IMG/VR virus record: IMGVR_UViG_3300005973_000002 | DNA: 64,000 bases | Direction: 5' to 3' (one strand) | Source of the DNA: a virus | Lineage: Duplodnaviria > Caudoviricetes | Shown: piece by piece, positions 14,119-32,653 of the stretch | How positions within the stretch are numbered: position 1 is the stretch's first letter | Layout of the letters: each line of letters begins with the position of its first letter | Position numbers and translations under genes: made by a program | The notes under the pieces: generated by a model | Seen by the model: only the letters and a program-made list of their open reading frames with translations | Databases searched by the model: none | Told to the model about the DNA's origin: nothing

Positions 14119-17100
14119 ATGGAGAAAAAAATGGTAACTTATGAAGAGGCTTTGAAAGAATCACTTGCATACTTCAACGGAGACGATTTAGCGGCGCAAG
14201 TCTTTCTTAAGAAGTATGCTTTACAGACGCCGGAAGGTGTTTATATGGAAAAAACGCCTGAAGATATGCACCGTAGGCTAGCAAAAGAGTTTGCAAGAAT
14301 TGAAGCCAAATACGAAAACCCGTTAAGTGAAGAAAAAATATACTCGTATTTGAAAAATTTTAAATATATAGTTCCGCAAGGGTCGCCAATGGCAGGTGTT
14401 GGCAACCCATACCAAGTGATGTCACTTTCTAATTGTTTTGTTATTGAATCTCCATATGATTCTTATGGTGGTATTTGCAAGACTGATCAAGAACAAGCAC
14501 AATTGATGAAACGTCGTGGTGGGGTTGGCTTTGACATTTCTTCAATTCGACCAAAAGGGTTGTTAACAGCTAATGCCGCAAAAACAACCGATGGCATTGG
14601 GTTGTTCATGGAAAGATATTCCAACACCTGCCGGGAAGTTGCACAGGGCGGTCGCCGAGGCGCATTAATGTTAACAATTTCGGTACACCATCCTGAGATT
14701 CGTACATTTGTAAACATTAAACGAGACCTTGGAAAAGTTACAGGTGCAAATATTTCAGTTCGCCTCTCTGATGAATTCATGCAAGCTGTTAAAGACGACA
14801 AAGACGTCGAATTACGTTGGCCTGTTGAAGAAAAGAAAAATCCCTCAGTCAAAGGCAGAGTCAACGCAAGACAACTTTGGCATGAAATAATTGAATCAGC
14901 CCATGCTAGCGCAGAGCCTGGACTTTTATTTTGGGACACTGTCAGGAACTGGTCTCCTGCTGACGCTTATGAAAAACTCGGATTTGGTACAACTTCCACC
15001 AATCCGTGTGGCGAAATCACCCTTTCTCCTTATGATTCTTGCCGACTTTTGCTGGTAAATGTTGTTTCTTTCGTTAAAGAACCTTTTACCAGCAAGGCAG
15101 AAATTGATTGGAAATTGTTTGCCGAAGTTGTGCAAGCTGCTCAAAAAATGATGGACGATATCGTCGATCTTGAACTTGAGTGTATTGACAAAATTCTTGA
15201 CAAAATTGAAAAGGACCCGGAGCCAGACGACGTCAAAGCTTTAGAAAAAGCTCTTTGGAACAAAATAAAGCAGTCAGCAGCTGACGGAAGAAGAACCGGA
15301 CTTGGAGTTACAGCCATTGGTGATGCGTTGGCTGCACTCAACATTCGTTACGGAAGCGATGAATCCGTTAAAATGGTAAATGAAATTTATAAGAATCTTG
15401 CAATTAATTCCTACCGTTCGTCGGTACGTATGGCTAAAGAACGTGGCGCCTTTCCTGTGTATGATTATGAGCTTGAAAGAAATCATCCATTTATCAATAG
15501 AATAATGGATGAAGATAAAGAACTAAGAAAAATGTGGGAAAAGTATGGCAGGAGAAACATTGCAAATACTACGACAGCACCAGCTGGTTCTGTCTCAGTT
15601 TTAACACAAACCACATCGGGAATTGAGCCAGCCTTTCTTCTTTCATACACCAGAAGACGAAAAATTAATCCAGATGATGTAGATGCAAGAGTTGATTTCG
15701 TTGATGACCTTGGTGATAAATGGCAAGAATACAAGGTCTATCACCATGGATTTAAAAAATGGATGGAGGTTACCGGAAAATCAAACCCAGAAGAAAGTCC
15801 ATATCATGGTGCAACCTCTAATGATATCAACTGGGTTAATAAAGTTCGAGCCCAGGCAGCAGCCCAAAAATGGATTTGTCATTCAATTTCTAATTGTGTC
15901 TCCGCCGATACGTCCATAATGACAAACCAAGGACTTTATAAAATAGAAGAGCTAGCTCAGCACGCTAAAGTTAAAAAATTTGCTCCAATCAAACAGGATG
16001 AACTTTATTCTAGGAACAAAAATGGTCTGGTCGCAAAGATAACCGAAGCATACAATAATGGGGTTGAACAAACTTTGCGAATTCAATGCGTTGGGGGTTA
16101 TGAAATTCAATGCACTCCAAGACATCAACTGGTGACGCTCAATTTAAATGGAGATAGAATATGGAAACGAGCAGACGAACTATCCCCAGGAGATATTGTT
16201 GTTGGGCAAAAGGGACATCAACTTTGGAATTCTAAGGTTGGCGAACAAACATTAGAGGAGCTGAACGGCAGCAAGTTCAATTTTGTTAAAAACATGCAAC
16301 ACAAATCAATTAAATTTCCAAAGAAAATGAGCAAAAAGCTTGCCCGACTTCTTGGTTATATGTGCTCTGATGGTTTTGTAACCAAAACCGGAATTGGTCT
16401 TTCGCAAAGTAGAAACAATGTAAGCGAAGATTTCCAGAATTTGATTGCTGATTTGTTTGTATTACAAACTACTGTCACAAAGGATAAACGTTCGAAAACA
16501 TTACATTCTTATCGGGTTAATTCAAAGGAACTTTCACAATTTTTCCAATGGCTTGGCATAACCAAGCATGACAAAATTGAAGTTCCAAGAGTTGTGCGCC
16601 TTGCTGGTAAAAGCCATGTCAAAGAATTCATTAAGGGATTGACCTTGGATGGCCATGTTACTAAGGACAATTTGTGTGTTGCAACATCAATTAGTAAACC
16701 AATGTTGCAGCAAGTTCAAATGTTGTTGTTGAACATGGGCATAGTGGCAAATCTGATCAAAACTCACAATGGTGGAAAAGTTACGTTCCCATCTGGAAAT
16801 GTAAGCAATACACAACCGGCTTGGTCTTTATATATTTCAGACAGTGCCGAAGCTGCACGTTTCTTACGAGCAGTCGGTTTTGCAGAGACAGATAAAACCA
16901 ACAAGGCAAAAACTCTCTTTAAGAAATCTTCTAGACTAAAATTGAAGGGCGAGGTACCTGATTTTGAATTTCGTAAGAAGTTCCGACAAGGTCCGCTTAA
17001 AAAACTCAAATCAAATTCATTGTATGAAAAGTTTCAGAGTCTTTCTCACCCATCAAAGGATGGTATGAAGCTTTCACGTGAGACGCTTTTGGAAATGGCA

Positions 17101-17943
17101 GACGTGGGTCTGAAATTGCCGGAAGAATTTATATCACAAAATTGGATTTTTTGGACAATCAAATCTGTTGAAGATGCAGGAATGGTTCAAACTTATGACC
17201 TTTCTGTTCCAAACGGAAATGCATACCTGGCCAATGGGTTTACTTCACATAACACAACAAACGTGCCTGAAGATACTACCATAGAAACCATTAAAAACAT
17301 TTACATGACTGGGTGGGAAACGGGATGCAAGGGTGTAACTGTTTACCGTGATAAGAGTCGTAGCGGTGTTCTTGTTAGCTCTTCTTCTACTTCACGTGAA
17401 AAAAAGAATTTCTCTGAGAATCATGCACCGAAGCGCCCAAAAGTTCTTCCGTGCGACATTTACCATGTTCAAGTAAAAGGTGAGAAGTGGAATTTCTTTG
17501 TTGGATTGTATGAAGACAAACCTTATGAAATCTTTGCAGGAAGAGCAAAACACATTCATCTGCCAAGAAGTCGAAAGAATGGTGTTATAAAAAAGAATGG
17601 TCATTACAATCTTTACACTGGAGATGGTGAAAATGAATTGAAGATTGAAGACTTGGCCACGGTTTTTGAAAATCCAACTGAAAGTGCCTTTACTAGAACC
17701 GTATCTCTTTCATTAAGACATGGTGTTCCAATCCAATATCTTGTTGAACAAATAGAAAAGGGAGCTGATAAAGAAAATGATATGTTCTCTCTTTCAAAGG
17801 GATTGATGAGAATTCTTAAAAGGTACATTAAGGATGGCACCAAACCTTCAACAAAGAAATGTCCAGAATGTGGTTCAGCAGAACTCGCATACCAAGAAGG
17901 ATGTTTGACTTGTAAGTCATGTGGTTATTCTAAATGTGGGTAA
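14119..17943 (+). CDS. nrdJ: class II (B12-dependent) ribonucleotide reductase containing an intein
   Basis: SLSNCFV, GGVG, TNPCGE, SCRL, TTAPAGS, TSGIEP, GCKGVTVYRD and C-terminal CPECG...CxxCGYSKC. Confidence 0.95.
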   Translation: MEKKMVTYEEALKESLAYFNGDDLAAQVFLKKYALQTPEGVYMEKTPEDMHRRLAKEFARIEAKYENPLSEEKIYSYLKNFKYIVPQGSPMAGVGNPYQVMSLSNCFVIESPYDSYGGICKTDQEQAQLMKRRGGVGFDISSIRPKGLLTANAAKTTDGIGLFMERYSNTCREVAQGGRRGALMLTISVHHPEIRTFVNIKRDLGKVTGANISVRLSDEFMQAVKDDKDVELRWPVEEKKNPSVKGRVNARQLWHEIIESAHASAEPGLLFWDTVRNWSPADAYEKLGFGTTSTNPCGEITLSPYDSCRLLLVNVVSFVKEPFTSKAEIDWKLFAEVVQAAQKMMDDIVDLELECIDKILDKIEKDPEPDDVKALEKALWNKIKQSAADGRRTGLGVTAIGDALAALNIRYGSDESVKMVNEIYKNLAINSYRSSVRMAKERGAFPVYDYELERNHPFINRIMDEDKELRKMWEKYGRRNIANTTTAPAGSVSVLTQTTSGIEPAFLLSYTRRRKINPDDVDARVDFVDDLGDKWQEYKVYHHGFKKWMEVTGKSNPEESPYHGATSNDINWVNKVRAQAAAQKWICHSISNCVSADTSIMTNQGLYKIEELAQHAKVKKFAPIKQDELYSRNKNGLVAKITEAYNNGVEQTLRIQCVGGYEIQCTPRHQLVTLNLNGDRIWKRADELSPGDIVVGQKGHQLWNSKVGEQTLEELNGSKFNFVKNMQHKSIKFPKKMSKKLARLLGYMCSDGFVTKTGIGLSQSRNNVSEDFQNLIADLFVLQTTVTKDKRSKTLHSYRVNSKELSQFFQWLGITKHDKIEVPRVVRLAGKSHVKEFIKGLTLDGHVTKDNLCVATSISKPMLQQVQMLLLNMGIVANLIKTHNGGKVTFPSGNVSNTQPAWSLYISDSAEAARFLRAVGFAETDKTNKAKTLFKKSSRLKLKGEVPDFEFRKKFRQGPLKKLKSNSLYEKFQSLSHPSKDGMKLSRETLLEMADVGLKLPEEFISQNWIFWTIKSVEDAGMVQTYDLSVPNGNAYLANGFTSHNTTNVPEDTTIETIKNIYMTGWETGCKGVTVYRDKSRSGVLVSSSSTSREKKNFSENHAPKRPKVLPCDIYHVQVKGEKWNFFVGLYEDKPYEIFAGRAKHIHLPRSRKNGVIKKNGHYNLYTGDGENELKIEDLATVFENPTESAFTRTVSLSLRHGVPIQYLVEQIEKGADKENDMFSLSKGLMRILKRYIKDGTKPSTKKCPECGSAELAYQEGCLTCKSCGYSKCG
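15895..17253 (+). mobile_element. LAGLIDADG intein (453 aa) in RNR
   Basis: HSISN|CVSADT ... YDLSV...NGFTSHN|TTNVP; LLGYMCSDG and FIKGLTLDG endonuclease motifs. Confidence 0.95.
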
Positions 17944-18030: not shown

Positions 18031-18885
18031 GTGGGAAGGTGGCATTTTTTTAGTAGTCTAACGTGTATCGCTACACTAATAAGTCTGACCCTTGTGATGG
18101 GGTGTGGTAGTTCACTATCCTATCTATCCCGTCCAGGCAATCCAGAACAATATGAGCATTACAGAAATGCTACCGTGGCACTCGTAGAACTTACCTCGGG
18201 TGGGAACATGGTTGGTCCAAATTGTTCTGGTTTTTTTATTTCTCCTAGACGATTAGTGACCGCCGAACACTGTGTTGTGGATCAAGGACAGGTGCTTGAA
18301 TTTGCACCAGGCGTAGGACGCAGAATAATACCCGTAACACCTGAACCAACTATAGGTCGTGAAATTCTTTTCGTGTCATACGAAGATGAAGAAGACTTTT
18401 TCAGCAGGGAACACAGACCAAGCCGAGGTCCAAACTACCATCGTTCAAAAGTTATTGCTGTTGATACAGAAAACGATGTTGCCATCCTAGAATTAATTGA
18501 CGGCGAAGAGGATTGGGTAAGTTGGTTTGAGATGAGAAATCTTGAACAAGAGCCTGTGCTTGTAGGTGAAAGAGTCTTTGCCATCAGTGATCCCGTTGGG
18601 CAAACTTTTATGCTCGGCGAAGGAATCATTTCCAGAGTAAGAGTGATAGAAAACAAGGTCAGAATTTTTCATCAAGTGAGAGTAGGGCCAGGTTCTTCAG
18701 GAAGTGTCCTTTTGGATAGACAAGCAAGAGTTATAGGTGTAAACGTAGCTATTTCTCGTAACAACATATTGACAATAACCATACCTGCTACATACATCCA
18801 AGCTCAATTGAATACCCTTGAAACCCAGCGTGAGTCTCAAACAGTAGATGAAAATGCTGGACTTTCGGAGGATTTACATGAATAG
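18031..18885 (+). CDS. trypsin-like (S1) serine protease lipoprotein
   Basis: lipobox VMG|C; TAEHC, NDVAIL, GPGSSGS catalytic triad. Confidence 0.9.
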   Translation: MGRWHFFSSLTCIATLISLTLVMGCGSSLSYLSRPGNPEQYEHYRNATVALVELTSGGNMVGPNCSGFFISPRRLVTAEHCVVDQGQVLEFAPGVGRRIIPVTPEPTIGREILFVSYEDEEDFFSREHRPSRGPNYHRSKVIAVDTENDVAILELIDGEEDWVSWFEMRNLEQEPVLVGERVFAISDPVGQTFMLGEGIISRVRVIENKVRIFHQVRVGPGSSGSVLLDRQARVIGVNVAISRNNILTITIPATYIQAQLNTLETQRESQTVDENAGLSEDLHE

Positions 18886-19750
18886 ATTTTTATCATTTTT
18901 GTTTGCTTTTATTTTATCGGTTGGATGCTCAAATTCATCAGTTGGTAGTTATAGATACATTGACAATATCAATAATGTAGTGCATCTACAGCACTCTGTT
19001 GTTGTTATTGTAAACAAAAATGAAAATGGTAGATTGAGCACTCCACAATGTACAGCCTTTTATGTGTCACCTAGACGATTAGCAACAGCTCTTCACTGTG
19101 TTCAAAATTCCACTGCTCAAATGGCTACAGTAGCACCAGGTATTATAATACAAATTAATGAAGATGCAGAATCTGAACCAGTAATTGGTCGTGAAGTCTT
19201 ATTTGTAGATTGGGAAGAACATCGTAGGTTTATTCAAAATTTTGATTCAAATAGCGATCCAATAGCAAGGCATTCAACAGTTGTTGGAGTTGATCCCGAA
19301 AATGATATTGCGCTAATTGAGTTAAAAGAAGAAGAAGAAAGTTCAAGACATTGGCTTTCACTTGCCACTGATGTTAATGTAGGTGAAAAAACCTACACCA
19401 TGGGTATGCCGAGTAATCAAATATGGTTGTTGTCTGAGGGAATTGTTTCCTCAATTAGGGTTTTTCCAGACGAACGGCGTCGCATTTTATTTCAAGGCTT
19501 GGTAGCCCCAGGGGCTTCTGGTAGCCCTGTTATTGATAACTTTGGGCATGTTGTTGGTGTCACCATACAATACGTTAGAGAAGTACCGGATCTGGGGGTT
19601 GCGTCGTCGAGTCATGATTTGTTACAGCTAATGGAGCAAAACATTCAAACCGTTATTACTTTACCAATGAACAATTTAGAAGAACAAGAAGACCCAACAA
19701 CTTGCGATTCAAGTGTTTCTTCTTGTTCATTGCCAGATTCTGAAGAATAG
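18878..19750 (+). CDS. second trypsin-like serine protease lipoprotein (paralog)
   Basis: lipobox SVG|C; TALHC, NDIALI, PGASGSP; GGAGG SD before ATG 18878. Confidence 0.9.
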   Translation: MNRFLSFLFAFILSVGCSNSSVGSYRYIDNINNVVHLQHSVVVIVNKNENGRLSTPQCTAFYVSPRRLATALHCVQNSTAQMATVAPGIIIQINEDAESEPVIGREVLFVDWEEHRRFIQNFDSNSDPIARHSTVVGVDPENDIALIELKEEEESSRHWLSLATDVNVGEKTYTMGMPSNQIWLLSEGIVSSIRVFPDERRRILFQGLVAPGASGSPVIDNFGHVVGVTIQYVREVPDLGVASSSHDLLQLMEQNIQTVITLPMNNLEEQEDPTTCDSSVSSCSLPDSEE

Positions 19751-19758
19751 TTATATGC

Positions 19759-20445
19759 GTGATTTACACGTCTAATAGCTTACTTGAAACTTTAATAACA
19801 AAAGAAGTTTCTTCAATTCTTGAATCATTCAGAGGCTTTGATTTAGAAAAGTTAAAGCGATTAGAATATCCAAGAGAAATGACAGAATATGCCAGAAAAT
19901 ATCTTCCTAGGCTCGGCGCTGGTTCCTCTAGAGAAGTTTTCGGTTGGAAAGCTGGTAAAGTAATAAAGATAGTTCATTCCCATCATAACACTTTTCAAAA
20001 TAAAGAAGAGATTGGAGTGTATGTCAATAATCCAAATTTGCGACCGTATCTTGCCAAGATATTCGATTTCGATCAGCAGAATTATTATTGGATAATAGCT
20101 GAAGGTGTGCAGGTTATCATTGATAATGCACACTTACGTAACAAATTTACTTTACCCGAACAAATATTAACTCAATTTATGCTTCGGATGAGGAAAAACA
20201 ATCTTCCGTTTGAGGAAGTTTTAGAAGAGGCACTTGAAAGCTATAATGAAAGCTATGCTGATTTCTACGTAAAGGGTCCAAAATCTGTATCTAAAGAAGA
20301 TTTAAATTCGCTTGATTTAGAGCTGTATAAAAAATTTTTTGACTTAACTAGAATGGGCATCGATGATATCGATCGCTATGACCACTGGGGCATGACAACA
20401 TCTGGACGCATTGTTGTAGTTGATTATGGATTGACGAATGAATAA
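19759..20445 (+). CDS. protein-kinase-like fold protein
   Basis: LGAGSSREVF Gly loop, KVIKI, helix-C Glu, D..D.WG catalytic loop, VVDYG. Confidence 0.75.
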   Translation: MIYTSNSLLETLITKEVSSILESFRGFDLEKLKRLEYPREMTEYARKYLPRLGAGSSREVFGWKAGKVIKIVHSHHNTFQNKEEIGVYVNNPNLRPYLAKIFDFDQQNYYWIIAEGVQVIIDNAHLRNKFTLPEQILTQFMLRMRKNNLPFEEVLEEALESYNESYADFYVKGPKSVSKEDLNSLDLELYKKFFDLTRMGIDDIDRYDHWGMTTSGRIVVVDYGLTNE

Positions 20446-21379
20446 TATTAAACTAAAAAGCCTAATTGAAAGTTTGGCTACGGACATTATTTTTGAAGCT
20501 ATCAATAAGTCGCCAAATGTATTTTGGCTGGTGACAGGAGTTAGTAATAGAAATCCCGAACGTATGGAGCAGCTTGCATCGGGAATCTTGCCAGGCGTTA
20601 AAGGCATTTCCGACAATAAAAAGATTCTCATGCATTTCCTTGGTATAGGAAGGAATGCAGTTTTAGTCATGCCTGCTTCAAAAGTTATTGAATTAAACGA
20701 CATATACAAAATTGACTACGAAGAACCTGAAGATTTGCTTGACAACGATATGATGCTGTTGTCAAGAATTTGGAACAAAGAACATGGAACCCCGATGGGT
20801 CGTCGAGGTGTTTTAGTAAATTTATCAGATAGGATTGCTGAAATTTTGAAGAAGAATTCAGACAGGAACATTTCTTCTATTGGCTCGGCAATTACAGGCG
20901 GTTACATTTCTCTGGAATCTAATGTACCGGAAATAAACAGTGTTACAGATCTTGCGGAGCATGTTAGAGAACGAGTTTTGGAAGGTTCTAACCAATTTAA
21001 CAGAGAAAAAAGAGAACGACTTCCTTTACAGTGGTGGAAACGAGTGGTTTCTGACGCTGTAATTGCTGGTATGCGCACATATCGCTCCGAAGGTGAGTGG
21101 GTAGTTGAAAATGATACACTCAGGGTTCCCGAAGGTTCTAGGTTGCTCGTAACGGTTACCAAACGTCCTCAAGATTTTCCTGGAGAGGTGCGAGCGCAAT
21201 TAAAAATGGGTGAGTTCCCAGGCTTTAAAGGAATAACACAAGCGCATATTTATTCCGGGCATATCATCGCAACTGTTTACAAGTATGGTTTAGATAAACG
21301 ATATGATGTAAGGTTTATAGATGCAAAGAAGTTTGAAGAAATTCAACTTAAACTACAGATGAAGCACCAATACGGATGA
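20438..21379 (+). CDS. hypothetical protein with LKSLIE..IFEA leader
   Basis: 313-aa ORF. Confidence 0.75.
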   Translation: MNNIKLKSLIESLATDIIFEAINKSPNVFWLVTGVSNRNPERMEQLASGILPGVKGISDNKKILMHFLGIGRNAVLVMPASKVIELNDIYKIDYEEPEDLLDNDMMLLSRIWNKEHGTPMGRRGVLVNLSDRIAEILKKNSDRNISSIGSAITGGYISLESNVPEINSVTDLAEHVRERVLEGSNQFNREKRERLPLQWWKRVVSDAVIAGMRTYRSEGEWVVENDTLRVPEGSRLLVTVTKRPQDFPGEVRAQLKMGEFPGFKGITQAHIYSGHIIATVYKYGLDKRYDVRFIDAKKFEEIQLKLQMKHQYG

Positions 21380-22044
21380 AACATTTAATCAAAATGATGG
21401 TAGAACAAGTTCTTGACGAACTTATCAGTTCAAAGGAGCCTACGGTTTACTTTGACATGGATGGTGTGCTGGCTGATTTCCAGGGTAAAGTTGAGCAAGA
21501 CATTGCCTATCAACGAGCCAAACAAGAATTTGAAAATTTAGCAGCCAAAGCTAAGCCGGAATTGCTTTCAGTACATACTGACGATTTAAAGGACATCTTC
21601 AAAGGCCGACAAGAAGATCCGGTGATGGCTAAATTAAAAAAGCTTTGGAATAAAAAACGCAATGCTTCATATGCCGTTGCTGGAAAACTTGGTCATTTTA
21701 AAAATCTTGATATTTTACCTGGCGCTAAAGAAATGATGATGGCAGCAGCTGATCTAACTAGAAAAAAGCCACACATCCTTACAGCTCCGATGGAAAGTCA
21801 TTCCAGATGCGAAGAAGAGAAAAGAGAGTGGGTTGACGAGCATTTAGCAGGTTTGTTTGATCAGTTTCATTGCACCCAGGACAAACATAATTTTGCCAAC
21901 AATGAGTGGGATATTCTTATTGATGACCGACCAAAATATGTAAATAAGTTCCGTGACGCCGGGGGTACTGCAATACTACATGTTGATCCAGGTGAAACTA
22001 TACAAAAGCTGCAAGAGTTGATTGCTAATTTGAAGGCGCAATAG
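21376..22044 (+). CDS. HAD 5'(3')-deoxyribonucleotidase (NT5C-like) with leader
   Basis: FDMDGVLADF, ILTAP, K..W, ILIDD motifs. Confidence 0.88.
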   Translation: MKHLIKMMVEQVLDELISSKEPTVYFDMDGVLADFQGKVEQDIAYQRAKQEFENLAAKAKPELLSVHTDDLKDIFKGRQEDPVMAKLKKLWNKKRNASYAVAGKLGHFKNLDILPGAKEMMMAAADLTRKKPHILTAPMESHSRCEEEKREWVDEHLAGLFDQFHCTQDKHNFANNEWDILIDDRPKYVNKFRDAGGTAILHVDPGETIQKLQELIANLKAQ

Positions 22045-22064: not shown

Positions 22065-23921
22065 ATGACCAAGTCACTTGAAAAATTGATTGAAGAGCTT
22101 GCAAAGGAAGCGTTGGATGAGGCTAATGCTATTTCTGCTGGTGGTGGTTCTTTACAACCTTCAGGCCAAGTAAGTGGAACCGGGGGAAACCCTCTTGGGA
22201 GAGATATGTCTGATCAACATGAAATAATGTGGTCGGGCGACGAGCCAGAAAAAAAGAAAAGAAGTTTAAAAGAAGAGGTTCTTGAGGAAGACGATCTCGA
22301 CGAGATAAGCGCTATTGGCACTGGAGCTGTTGTAGGTTATACCTTACCTCTTGGTATGAAACCTGACCATGAAACAATGGGGACCAAGAAGAAGAAAAAG
22401 AAAAGACCTAGACGCTGGTATGACGTGCATAAGGAATCACGAAATCGAACGAGGAAAAACGAACAGGTTCGAATTAAAGTATATAATGAAAAAAAAGAAA
22501 AAGTCGCTACAGCAGCAATAAAGTTTGATGGTAAAATTGCATTTTTAGATAGTGTATTCGTTGTCCCTGAGTATCATAAACAAGGGATTGGAAAACAACT
22601 TTACAAGGAAGCCAATGTTGAAGCAAAAAAACAATTTGGAGTTCCTTTAACATCAAGTGATTTCTTGACTCCGCATTCAAAAAAGATGTGGTATCACTTA
22701 TCCAAAGAAGGCGCTGCCAACAAGGTTAGTGAATCTTATCAAATGAAAGAAAGAGAGCTTGATGAGCAAGTTAGGATGCCTGGCAAATACAATTGGGGGC
22801 TGCATCCAATAGAAGGGCCACACTGGTGGAAGCATTTTTCAAAAACAGCAGACAAGATGGTTTTTGCACCTCACGCACTGACTCAAGAAGCATATGAAGA
22901 GCATAATTTGGACATTGAAGACAAAGGTATATGGGGACCAGCATCAATGTTGCGTGGACCTTCCAGACTGGTACTAGCCTACCCTAAAGAAAAAAAGATA
23001 GATATTCTTACAAACCTTAGGGATCCCAGACTAGCTTACCTACTTTCTACGAGTTTGAAATATATTCCAGAGCTTGCCGACTTCAAAGTTTATTTGGCAT
23101 CAAAATCCCCCATGTATGATGAAGACAAATTTTTGGGTAACCCTAAAGAGTTGTTAGCAAAGATTAAAGTAATTTCTGGAAGATCGCCACAATGGTCACG
23201 AGACGATGATAAAGTAGAATACACTGAGTTCAAATTTGAAGTCTTGGAAGATGTAGATGATGTTGATTGGTATCATGCAACAAGCCTTAAAAACTTAGAT
23301 TCAATAAAATCAAAAGGACTATTAACATCAAAGGAGTTTGAACAAGGCACTGGTTGGACACAGCTCAATCTACATTTGCAAGACGCAGTATATTTGACCT
23401 CTGATGAAGACTATGCACTAAGAATTGCTGAAACATTATTGGCTAGAACTGGAGTACCAGGTCTTGTCTTGAAGGTTTCAGGGCAAGCCCTAAAAGATAA
23501 AGAAAAGCTTATTGTTGATGAAGACCGTCTGAGAAATCAATATGACAGTATGTTATCCGCCGGTGAATTATTGGCTGGCATGCCTGATTATTTAAGTTCT
23601 GTGTTGGATTCGAAACTCGAAGCAGTTGGATACAAAGGAAAGATTGATCCTGGGTTCATTTCACCAGCATATGTTGTTGATGTTGAAAGAGATGAAGAGG
23701 GTAATTTTGCGGGCGAAGAAGCTGACATCTACACTTGGCAAGAGTGGAAAGCAAACTCAAGAAAGGTTGATGAAGAGTTTATTGGAAAACGAGGTGGTGT
23801 AAGCTATTTCCAAATTGGGGGTTCTTTGCCTGACCATCTATACAATAGAACCGATGATGGCAAACCAACGAGAGATCCGGGGGTTGTAGGACTTAAAAGA
23901 CCTAAAAAAAAGAAAAAATGA
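22065..23921 (+). CDS. multidomain protein: Gly/Lys repeats + GNAT + unknown + Tpt1/DarT-like ART fold
   Basis: VFVVPEYHKQGIGKQLY (GNAT motif A); WYHATSLKNLDSIKSKGL...VYLT...YKGKIDP (ART-like). Confidence 0.7.
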   Translation: MTKSLEKLIEELAKEALDEANAISAGGGSLQPSGQVSGTGGNPLGRDMSDQHEIMWSGDEPEKKKRSLKEEVLEEDDLDEISAIGTGAVVGYTLPLGMKPDHETMGTKKKKKKRPRRWYDVHKESRNRTRKNEQVRIKVYNEKKEKVATAAIKFDGKIAFLDSVFVVPEYHKQGIGKQLYKEANVEAKKQFGVPLTSSDFLTPHSKKMWYHLSKEGAANKVSESYQMKERELDEQVRMPGKYNWGLHPIEGPHWWKHFSKTADKMVFAPHALTQEAYEEHNLDIEDKGIWGPASMLRGPSRLVLAYPKEKKIDILTNLRDPRLAYLLSTSLKYIPELADFKVYLASKSPMYDEDKFLGNPKELLAKIKVISGRSPQWSRDDDKVEYTEFKFEVLEDVDDVDWYHATSLKNLDSIKSKGLLTSKEFEQGTGWTQLNLHLQDAVYLTSDEDYALRIAETLLARTGVPGLVLKVSGQALKDKEKLIVDEDRLRNQYDSMLSAGELLAGMPDYLSSVLDSKLEAVGYKGKIDPGFISPAYVVDVERDEEGNFAGEEADIYTWQEWKANSRKVDEEFIGKRGGVSYFQIGGSLPDHLYNRTDDGKPTRDPGVVGLKRPKKKKK

Positions 23922-26654: not shown

Positions 26655-27026
26655 TTGGATACCTGGTATACTCGATCAATGGGATTCCTAAGTAAATTCT
26701 TTAAAAAGAAAATAAAAAAACCGACAAGGGAAGTTTTAAAAGAGCTAATTCCTGGCGATTTAGTTTACATTAAGTTTAAAGCACCTCCCGATATTGGAAT
26801 TGTCAGTGGACATGACTTATCATTAATGAGGCTAAACCCCTTAGAAGCCTCTAAAAGAGAAATTGTGGGCACAATTTCTTTTAACAAAACAATGGAAGCT
26901 CCTTTGTTTTCTAGAGTAATTGAAATAGTAACCTTATCAAGTCCAGATATGCCTGGCAAAACCAGAAGAATGACATTCTTAGAAGATGAAATTGAGATTG
27001 TGAGGAAAATAAAAAATGAGCAATGA
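26655..27026 (+). CDS. hypothetical protein
   Basis: 123-aa ORF. Confidence 0.6.
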   Translation: MDTWYTRSMGFLSKFFKKKIKKPTREVLKELIPGDLVYIKFKAPPDIGIVSGHDLSLMRLNPLEASKREIVGTISFNKTMEAPLFSRVIEIVTLSSPDMPGKTRRMTFLEDEIEIVRKIKNEQ

Positions 27027-32452: not shown

Positions 32453-32653
32453 ATGAGCAAAACACTTTCAAATTTAGTAAAGAAATACCGACGGGCGAAG
32501 ATTGGAAACAAGTTTCAGTTCCCGCATGTTAGAAAGGTTAGCCCAACACTGATATCACAGCAGGTTGTATCAGTCCAACCAATGAGTCTTCCTTCTGGTT
32601 TGCTGTTCTACTTAGACTACTCCTATACAAGTGGAAGTAATAAACAGGAATGA
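32453..32653 (+). CDS. 66-aa ORF resembling an internal segment of a gp23-like major capsid protein
   Basis: FPHVRKV...LI...VVSVQPMSLPSGLLFYLDY matches the MCP VQPMxxPxGxxFxL motif. Confidence 0.75.
   Translation: MSKTLSNLVKKYRRAKIGNKFQFPHVRKVSPTLISQQVVSVQPMSLPSGLLFYLDYSYTSGSNKQE

Follow-up and report, generated by a model that had tools for sequence, protein, structure and literature searches.

A candidate head-cargo polyprotein of an uncultured giant T4-like phage, with predicted acetyltransferase and ADP-ribosyltransferase units between putative prohead-protease sites

In phage T4 the prohead protease gp21 cuts after L/I-X-E and removes propeptides of 10-19 amino acids (aa), the capsid-targeting sequences (CTS), from internal proteins; it also shortens Alt at its two termini and divides core proteins into several fragments (PMC9026906, PMC3012670). 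It also removes 65 N-terminal residues from the capsid protein gp23, and when the P1 residue is Asp a T4 protein is still targeted but is no longer processed (PMC9026906). For the polyvalent proteins of phages and conjugative elements, Iyer et al. 2017 describe an ADP-ribosyltransferase (ART) of the H-Y-D type next to a GNAT domain; delivery of such proteins with the DNA and release of their domains were predicted there and release by proteolysis was proposed (PMC5512222). Here we describe a protein, P0001, encoded by an open reading frame (ORF) of 618 aa in the record IMGVR_UViG_3300005973_000002 (Duplodnaviria; Caudoviricetes). The window, which is the whole stretch of 64,000 nucleotides that was analysed, lies within a contig of 461 kb that comes from an uncultured giant T4-like phage, the source samples (SRR62019xx and ERZ272493xx series) being from a salt lake. 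An earlier, sequence-only reading had taken P0001 for a polyprotein of a GNAT domain, an unknown domain and a Tpt1/DarT-like ART, with candidate Glu cleavage sites at the domain borders; the ORF and the positions of the motifs were as it described. The ORF is real, since the identical sequence, letter for letter, was found in at least six places among the matches listed, from several independent assemblies of which the longest contig is 461 kb. From its N-terminus P0001 consists of a leader, two spacer modules (A and B), a mini-GNAT domain, an ART unit and a third spacer module, C (Table 1). That it is cargo of the phage head which is cut into separate enzymes is a reading that, in our judgement, stands about an even chance of being right.

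The likeness to polyvalent phage proteins that the sequence-only reading had pointed out holds, ART beside GNAT having already been described for that class (PMC5512222). Like those proteins P0001 has at least two conflict-type enzyme domains in one phage polypeptide, and its relatives are extensively domain-shuffled (NT5C, ParB, Arr, CCA-adding-type, GNAT) (PMC5512222). With the T4 CTS cargo proteins (IPI-III and Alt) P0001 has in common an amphipathic propeptide at the N-terminus that is short and terminates in L/I-x-E, a clade in which a Peptidase_S77 protease and a gp23-type capsid protein are present, and a cargo which includes an ART and which is diverse, with the tag alone in common. 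Unlike the T4 cargo, P0001 chains several units with internal junctions of a putative cut type, and its gene lies outside the head/baseplate block.

The leader of P0001 falls in the 10-19 aa length class of the T4 propeptides and similar leaders are present on the ORFs at 20438, 21376 and 3177. Unlike in the T4 proteins, the leader is not a CTS of the IPIII type but a copy of the predicted maturation site of the capsid protein. An IMG/VR relative that carries module C (G002) encodes a 628-aa capsid protein which is a homologue of T4 gp23 (E 2e-27) and whose N-terminal region reads '..AAHLLQE/GNALSMGGAGMASSGQVAG..', where the slash, here and below, marks the candidate cut. The 'SSGQVAG' of this capsid protein aligns with 'AAGQTSG' of T4 gp23 (aa 80-86), and therefore LLQE/ lies within 2 residues of the T4 maturation site LTE65/A66. 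The local alignment of the N-terminus of P0001 with this capsid segment scored 64, a score that 0 of 5000 shuffles reached. A search for capsid proteins gave more than 4,400 related sequences, and when a profile made from a 40-aa segment of 120 capsid proteins of the clade (consensus '..ARLLENQAAELLKESNALSTGGAGLTSSGQVAGF') was compared with 272 ORF fragments of the window, the sole significant match was P0001 aa 6-38 ('EKLIEELAKEALDEANAISAGGGSLQPSGQVSG'; E 3.1e-9, 29.3 bits), the second-best match being 'LKEFNALSTA' of the neighbouring protein P0002 at E 0.2. P0001 aa 6-19 align with the last 14 residues of the capsid propeptide, and a profile of module A in turn matched capsid proteins at E 2e-5 and 1.6e-3. 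Because both the capsid-segment alignment and the profile match P0001 at aa 6-38, the leader with its Glu, together with the initial 19 residues of module A, is a copy of the end of the capsid propeptide and its cut site.

The clade also has a protease of the gp21 family. In the relative that carries the P0001 homologue P0014, the genes for Portal_T4, a 290-aa protein, Peptidase_S77 (E 2.8e-19), two small proteins, a 743-aa scaffold and Gp23 stand in a row. One S77 protease gene of the clade is at L028:5858-6487. The copy of the capsid maturation site at the N-terminus and the gp21-type protease of the clade are support for processing that goes beyond what the earlier reading had offered.

Some further observations concern the head proteins themselves. 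A likeness of modules A and B to T4 gp23* was not significant when compared with T4, the true match being the clade's own capsid protein, and a marginal likeness of module C to T4 gp23 (11 of 2000 shuffles) was absent from the clade capsid protein and was treated as chance. Mini-ORFs of 66-70 aa copy a capsid segment, '..VRRVF..LI...IVSVQPMSLPSGL', that directly follows the segment copied in module A and that we take to correspond to the Gol region of T4 gp23, and N-terminal pieces of the capsid protein have thus been reused several times in these genomes. There are also small proteins beginning with 'RW..LAG[IL]..E', and the scaffold proteins of 726 and 743 aa end in this same peptide ('ERWQTLAGIKNRK', 'DRWKQLAGISRR').

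When the junctions were compared among the relatives, every module and cassette was found to have [LIVM]-x-Glu directly before it. The motifs named in the sequence-only reading were LDEA (aa 17-20), LDEI (78-81), KNEQ (132-135) and LDEQ (232-235). In three of them the Glu (E19, E80 and E234) is conserved as [LIVM]-x-E at a unit border in all relatives, and the same is true of E570, which was absent from that list; such retention at the borders goes beyond what chance would give. The site KNE134/Q135 was rejected: it is not conserved and is located inside the first GNAT strand (aa 133-140 in the model), and the alignment has no conserved L-x-E between module B and GNAT. In the model E19, E234 and E570 are at the edges of low-confidence stretches. 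In P0003, P0011 and P0012 the GNAT '..ELDE' runs straight into the 'E[FY]IGK' of module C, and in P0001 the ART unit of 336 aa sits exactly between 'ELDE' and 'E[FY]IGK' and supplies its own '..KVDE'. In P0009, P0019 and P0025 the ART cassette begins right after the N-terminal leader ('..LLNEFDE/QVS'), because of which the internal junction of P0001 can be regarded as the equivalent of a leader end.

The homologues of P0001 are mosaics in which modules A, B and C are kept at about 55-90% identity, and what is swapped between the modules are NT5C, GNAT, the P0001-type ART, Arr, ParB, a CCA-adding-type nucleotidyltransferase and unknown domains. NT5C, for example, is fused to modules A, B and C in P0011, P0013, P0014, P0016, P0017 and P0021. 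In the relatives module A has the pattern 'NAISAGGGSLQPSGQVSGTGGNPLGRDM..WSGDEP', module B 'NAMGTGAVVGYTLPLGMKPD..KKKKRPRRWYD' and module C 'E[FY]IG..GGVSYFQMGGSLPD.LYN.T.DGKPTRDPGV.GL.KKKK'. The pairwise identity of module A is 65-91% between relatives in which the flanking domains differ, and alignment A2 of module C has 14 invariant columns over 15 proteins with different neighbouring domains. Synonymous divergence (dS) of the modules is saturated and non-synonymous divergence (dN) is 0.05-0.5, being 0.05-0.3 in module A. Since dS is saturated and dN is low the selection is on the peptides and not on the DNA, which indicates that modules A, B and C are under purifying selection at the protein level; that they act as DNA-level recombination signals was ruled out, the synonymous sites being saturated. 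The modules are rich in Gly, Pro and Lys, B and C are basic with Lys runs at their ends, and a phmmer search of the window did not find them repeated elsewhere in it. The low-confidence stretches of the model are aa 19-28, 34-74, 83-125, 231-250, 571-586 and 605-613, and the modules are thus predicted to be mostly unstructured. In the IMG/VR relative L021 (L021:5670-6204), A and C are separate mini-genes, each with its own amphipathic leader, in stop-to-stop frames of 85 and 99 aa that overlap in different frames. Since they occur there as stand-alone genes that bear leaders, A and C are independent units.

In two other loci (L022:4721-6809 and L020:4583-7125) the chain breaks just after the Lys-rich module ends, which are encoded by poly-A, so that its parts lie in ORFs of their own, some of them overlapping, and P0016 is a fused version of these parts. 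The A-runs at these breaks could be slippage sites or assembly errors.

Taken together, P0001 is set apart from both the T4 CTS cargo and the polyvalent proteins in that it has no embedded peptidase, has conserved spacer peptides that also occur independently, has cassette swaps exactly at the Glu junctions and has a signal derived from the capsid protein. Unlike in polyvalent proteins, domain scans of P0001 found no embedded peptidase (MPTase, assemblin-like or other), and neither conserved inter-domain modules nor a copy of a capsid cut site was seen in the part of the polyvalent-protein survey that was available (PMC5512222).

A probable course of events, if P0001 is indeed cleaved head cargo, is that the leader would take it into the prohead core like a T4 capsid-targeting sequence and that the prohead protease would then cut it after E19, E80, E234 and E570. 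Besides the leader (2.2 kDa), the predicted products are the acidic peptide A (6.5 kDa, isoelectric point (pI) 4.4), a basic B-GNAT protein (17.7 kDa, pI 9.8), the ART enzyme (38.3 kDa, pI 5.0) and the basic peptide C (5.3 kDa, pI 10.2). The released products would leave the head with the DNA, and GNAT and ART may acetylate and ADP-ribosylate a host protein or nucleic acid for takeover of the host or for counter-defence, as T4 Alt does.

The identity of the ART unit was examined in a model of aa 228-570 built with 80 homologues, which had a predicted local distance difference test score (pLDDT) of 91.5 and a predicted template modelling score (pTM) of 0.89. The ART fold is in the C-terminal half of this model (aa ~392-567). 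Its VIA structure matches were DarT1 (8baq, Z 8.5-9.1), KptA (9ld3, Z 7.4-9.1), TreX (7.4), Mtb DarT (7.1) and pertussis S1 (7.0), and 36 of the 37 top matches were ART-fold proteins. Foldseek likewise gave ARTs as the top matches in PDB (E 5e-4) and DUF4433/DarT on top among the AFDB clusters. In the 80 sequences H404 and Y443 are invariant and D485, E486 and D487 are each conserved in at least 90%; the model has strands at aa 402-407, 442-445 and 482-483, the last one just before D485. This reads as the H-Y-D/E pattern of ARTs, with His on strand 1, Tyr on strand 2 and the acidic residue on strand 5. From the model, aa 391-570 are thus an ADP-ribosyltransferase fold for which enzyme activity is predicted. 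This differs from T4 Alt, which is of the R-S-E type, whereas the ART of P0001 is H-Y-D/E with a DarT/Tpt1-like fold.

As to the claim that this is a Tpt1/DarT-like ART, the fold stands, with DarT and Tpt1/KptA as the best structural matches of the core, but membership in either family is not supported. The DarT profile (PF14487) did not match P0001 at E<=10 nor the 80 family members at E<=0.1, and the Tpt1 Pfam profile matched neither P0001 nor the 80. The ART family profile (A1) matched Tpt1 sequences over a 30-aa strand-1 motif only (E 0.0026), and this motif, '[WY]-H-x-T...NL.SI...GL', is common to DarT/Tpt1 and the ART of P0001. Unlike DarT, P0001 has no DarG-like partner nearby: no DarG-type macrodomain was found among the scanned neighbours (NT5C, Toprim-Arr, the peptidases, ThyX and the matchless ORFs), a 123-aa ORF at 26655-27026 being outside the scan. 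The N-terminal RNA-binding lobe of Tpt1/KptA carries part of the R-H-R-R tetrad. The alignment with Tpt1/KptA covers the NAD lobe only (chain residues 91-180), and unlike in Tpt1 the RNA lobe appears to be absent from P0001, with a different N-terminal sub-domain in its place. The pattern and the GNAT neighbour invite comparison with Tox-ART-HYD2 of the polyvalent proteins, but among the 80 family members the Pfam matches were weak and were to DUF7002 (31/80) and PARP (4/80), no Pfam ART family apart from PARP being matched; unlike the ARTs of polyvalent proteins, that of P0001 has no above-threshold Pfam ART match (PMC5512222). There was no mention of DUF7002 in the literature searched. The family is rare, with 86 clusters among 1.84 billion representatives, and its members are mostly stand-alone proteins of ~300 aa.

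The separate unknown domain of the sequence-only reading was not upheld. The model places aa 235-390 (pLDDT >85) in one rigid unit with the ART (pTM 0.89), and there is no conserved cut motif between the two; therefore this region is not a separate module and is predicted to be the ART enzyme's own N-terminal sub-domain, which packs against the ART domain. Many of the more distant members of the ART family can also be aligned over the C-terminal part of this sub-domain. When it was searched within the ART unit its best structural matches were just Z 4.3-4.5 and Atlas TM <0.5, and it has no invariant catalytic-type residue and no Cys, because of which weak look-alikes among C48 peptidases are not meaningful and were dismissed. 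Other ART-like proteins were also seen. Three homologues of 524-560 aa (P0007, P0008 and P0018) have the ART unit followed by a leader-like helix, a long acidic stretch rich in Asp and Gly and a C-terminal helical tail ending in '..RLSMFAKGF', which is a scaffold-tail-like arrangement. A 414-aa protein (L018:2730-3974) starts with 'NIWYHGTEKG..IYLTPS', and a 124-aa protein, 'LYHFTPKRNIENILATGI', lies just downstream of a capsid gene (L028:12398-12772); neither has a Pfam match.

The GNAT claim of the sequence-only reading was borne out by profile as well as by fold, and its proposed check of each domain's structure recovered both folds in the models (GNAT Z 10.8; DarT1 Z 8.5-9.1). Three Pfam models match aa 116-196 above their gathering scores, namely PF13673 (29.9 bits, cut-off 23.6), PF13508 (29.1, cut-off 27) and PF00583 (28.1, cut-off 20.7), and the acetyl-CoA pyrophosphate-binding motif (Q/R-x-x-G-x-G/A) can be read directly as QGIGKQ at aa 172-177. 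When AlphaFold was run on the entire protein with alignment A6, aa 131-230 were modelled with a pLDDT of 85-92, and many structures match aa 128-230 with Z 8-10.8, among them 1y9w (Z 10.8), the anti-CRISPR protein AcrVA5 (Z 9.7 over 82/95 residues) and YjdJ (Z 8.0). Thus aa 131-230 belong by profile and modelled fold to the GNAT superfamily and acetyl transfer is predicted. Because the fold matches include YjdJ and AcrVA5, which is only 92 aa long, the core is regarded as truncated, a 'mini-GNAT' that like them has ~90-100 aa and no N-terminal arm. It is only 14-17% identical to proteins of the AcrVA5/YjdJ type, and unlike them it is fused behind the basic module B within a larger chain.

Several observations weigh against the reading of P0001 as cleaved head cargo. 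We infer packaging and cleavage on an indirect basis, and the evidence for the protease and for the capsid protein comes from relatives of the same clade and not from the phage's own genome. Its own 461-kb contig, to ~46 kb past the end of the window, has baseplate genes and small tagged proteins and no protease or capsid gene; the window itself does hold a T4_baseplate gene and Gp23 fragments. A tblastn search with T4 gp21 had no match in the part of the locus set that was searched, and a Pfam S77 search had none in three IMG/VR fragments that are 14-20% complete. P0001 has 16 [LIVM]-x-E motifs, mostly in folded parts and including the catalytic 'VDE486'; as this is about what its composition gives, motif position alone is not beyond chance, and it is conservation and context and not the motif count that argue for the putative cut sites. 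Modules B and C match no head protein among the loci compared. Scanning for promoters, terminators and the late motif of T4, TATAAATA, gave no more than chance-level results, and no late promoter could be assigned. The gene is within a replication and nucleotide-metabolism block (DnaB, RNR, NT5C, ThyX) outside the head genes, and the neighbouring nucleotidase, which would be odd as head cargo, bears a similar leader. Finally, conservation extends 40-50 residues beyond each cut site, which is more than a cut site needs.

This last observation, that the modules are conserved far past the P1 Glu, would be accounted for if P0001 were packaged essentially uncut, with only the leader removed as in T4 Alt, so that a 70-kDa multi-enzyme enters the cell whole and the modules are flexible tethers or DNA-binding tails that hold it on the ejected DNA. 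The Gly/Pro/Lys-rich composition of the modules and their low model confidence, and the basic character and terminal Lys runs of B and C, agree with such a role, and some polyvalent proteins, for example N4 vRNAP, are packaged unprocessed (PMC5512222). However, the internal junctions look just like the ends of leaders, with cassettes that start exactly after the Glu, A and C exist as separate leader-bearing mini-genes and hence work as free peptides, and in T4 every L/I-X-E of the core proteins that is accessible gets cleaved (PMC9026906). We therefore consider an uncut P0001 rather unlikely.

The position of the gene between RNR/NT5C and ThyX, and the presence of the same kind of leader on metabolic enzymes, suggest another explanation, which is that P0001 is not head cargo at all but a cytoplasmic multi-enzyme that acts during infection, its leader and modules serving stability or the assembly of a replication or nucleotide-metabolism complex. 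What is hard to explain outside head assembly is the match of the N-terminal 33 residues to the capsid maturation site (E 3e-9). Leaders are also enriched among the closer ART relatives, being present in 21 of 63, whereas shuffled N-termini gave 7.7 on average and 17 at most, and the combination of GNAT with ART recurs in proteins for which injection is predicted (PMC5512222). We regard this explanation, too, as unlikely. That the two trypsin-like peptidases encoded upstream (18031-19750), rather than the prohead protease, process P0001 as viral 3C-like proteases do is highly improbable, because although tandem Trypsin_2 genes lie directly upstream of the variable cassette region in 4/4 phages examined and Glu-specific S1 proteases exist, both peptidases have an N-terminal signal peptide with a lipobox (..LVMGC, ..LSVGC), from which they would be exported as lipoproteins away from a cytoplasmic or capsid-bound substrate, and the cut-site copy indicates the protease of the capsid protein.

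Table 1. Positions of P0001, of its parts and of related features; positions refer to the window unless a locus is named
Feature	Position	Strand	Description	Basis or remark
P0001 ORF	22065-23921	+	618 aa	frame read directly
Leader	22065..22121	+	aa 1-19, amphipathic helix, LIE10 and LDE19	read directly; helix aa 5-24 in model
Putative capsid cut-site copy	22080..22178	+	aa 6-38 (..ELLKE/sNALStGGAgLtSSGQVaG..)	profile match
Module A	22122..22304	+	aa 20-80, acidic Gly-rich peptide, pI 4.4, ends LDE80	
Module B	22305..22454	+	aa 81-130, 'ISAIGTGAVVGYTLPLGMKPDH..KKKKKKRPRRWYD', basic extension preceding GNAT	alignment A3
Mini-GNAT, predicted acetyltransferase	22455..22754	+	aa 131-230	Pfam, fold
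Junction ELDE234/Q235	22755..22766	+	ART cassette insertion point	low-confidence stretch aa 231-250
ART unit, N-terminal sub-domain	22767..23234	+	aa 235-390	model
ART-fold domain	23235..23774	+	aa 391-570, H404, Y443, D485-E486-D487, ends VDE570	structure matches
Module C	23775..23921	+	aa 571-618 + stop, 'EFIGKRGGVSYFQIGGSLPDHLYNRTDDGKPTRDPGV.GL.KKKKK', basic, pI 10.2	alignment A2
NT5C 5'-nucleotidase	21376..22044	+	similar leader; directly upstream of P0001	Pfam + PHROG matches
P0002	24136..25944	+	Toprim primase-like + Arr-like ART; related N-terminal modules incl. 'LKE/FNALSTA'	
Capsid-segment mini-ORFs	32453-32653; L008:17410-17818; L009:18922-19131	+ (window)		
RW..LAG-type proteins	L018:598-10849; L027:6220-8400; L028:7674-9905 and 16483-17588			

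In the window the gene order is DnaB, ribonucleotide reductase (RNR, with an intein), two tandem Trypsin_2 peptidases, two ORFs, NT5C, P0001, P0002 and ThyX, and the order DnaB, RNR, two peptidases, variable region and ThyX is also present in three related phages. The two ORFs (19759-20445 and 20438-21379) matched no Pfam family. The Trypsin_2 genes are at 18031-18885 and 18848-19750 (+). The large subunit of RNR (14119-17943, +) has an intein with a LAGLIDADG endonuclease, and in the orthologues of three relatives, which are 816-818 aa long, the intein match is absent. P0002 has a Toprim primase-like core (PHROG 849, E 5e-31) and, after it, an ART that is Arr-like (25.5 bits with Pfam Arr-ms), and N-terminal of the Toprim core there are further conserved modules ('PLHGAPVYYYPTGRSLPKKL', 'LKE/FNALSTAAIEASN..DAPRI'). 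Direct similarity between P0001 and P0002 is not significant; P0010 is a single 940-aa chain that joins P0002-type modules with modules A, B and C. When cultured phages were searched by megablast and tblastn with the locus and with P0001 there was no match, and modules B and C gave chance-level matches only. An IMG/VR scan with the whole of P0001 gave zero relatives and one with the module-C alignment gave 3 loci. P0001 was unmatched in PADLOC.

If P0001 is cleaved head cargo, a more general proposal follows, which we put forward tentatively and consider somewhat doubtful: that giant T4-like phages use a 'cut-here' grammar that places effector cassettes between copies of the capsid maturation site and the peptides A, B and C, and that a single prohead protease releases a variable set of host-modifying enzymes together with the peptide cargo. 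If this is true, it would be a polyprotein strategy of a DNA phage that works without an embedded protease, and counter-defence enzymes could be swapped as cassettes while the signals for targeting and processing need not be evolved anew. Injected effectors could then also be recognised, across thousands of T4-like phages that have not been cultured, by one simple criterion, namely a leader or junction that ends in [LIVM]-x-E and follows the pattern of the cut site in the capsid protein itself. The 38-residue tag may be a tool for loading proteins into capsids, and the rare ART family and the mini-GNAT would be candidates for early-acting modifiers of the host.

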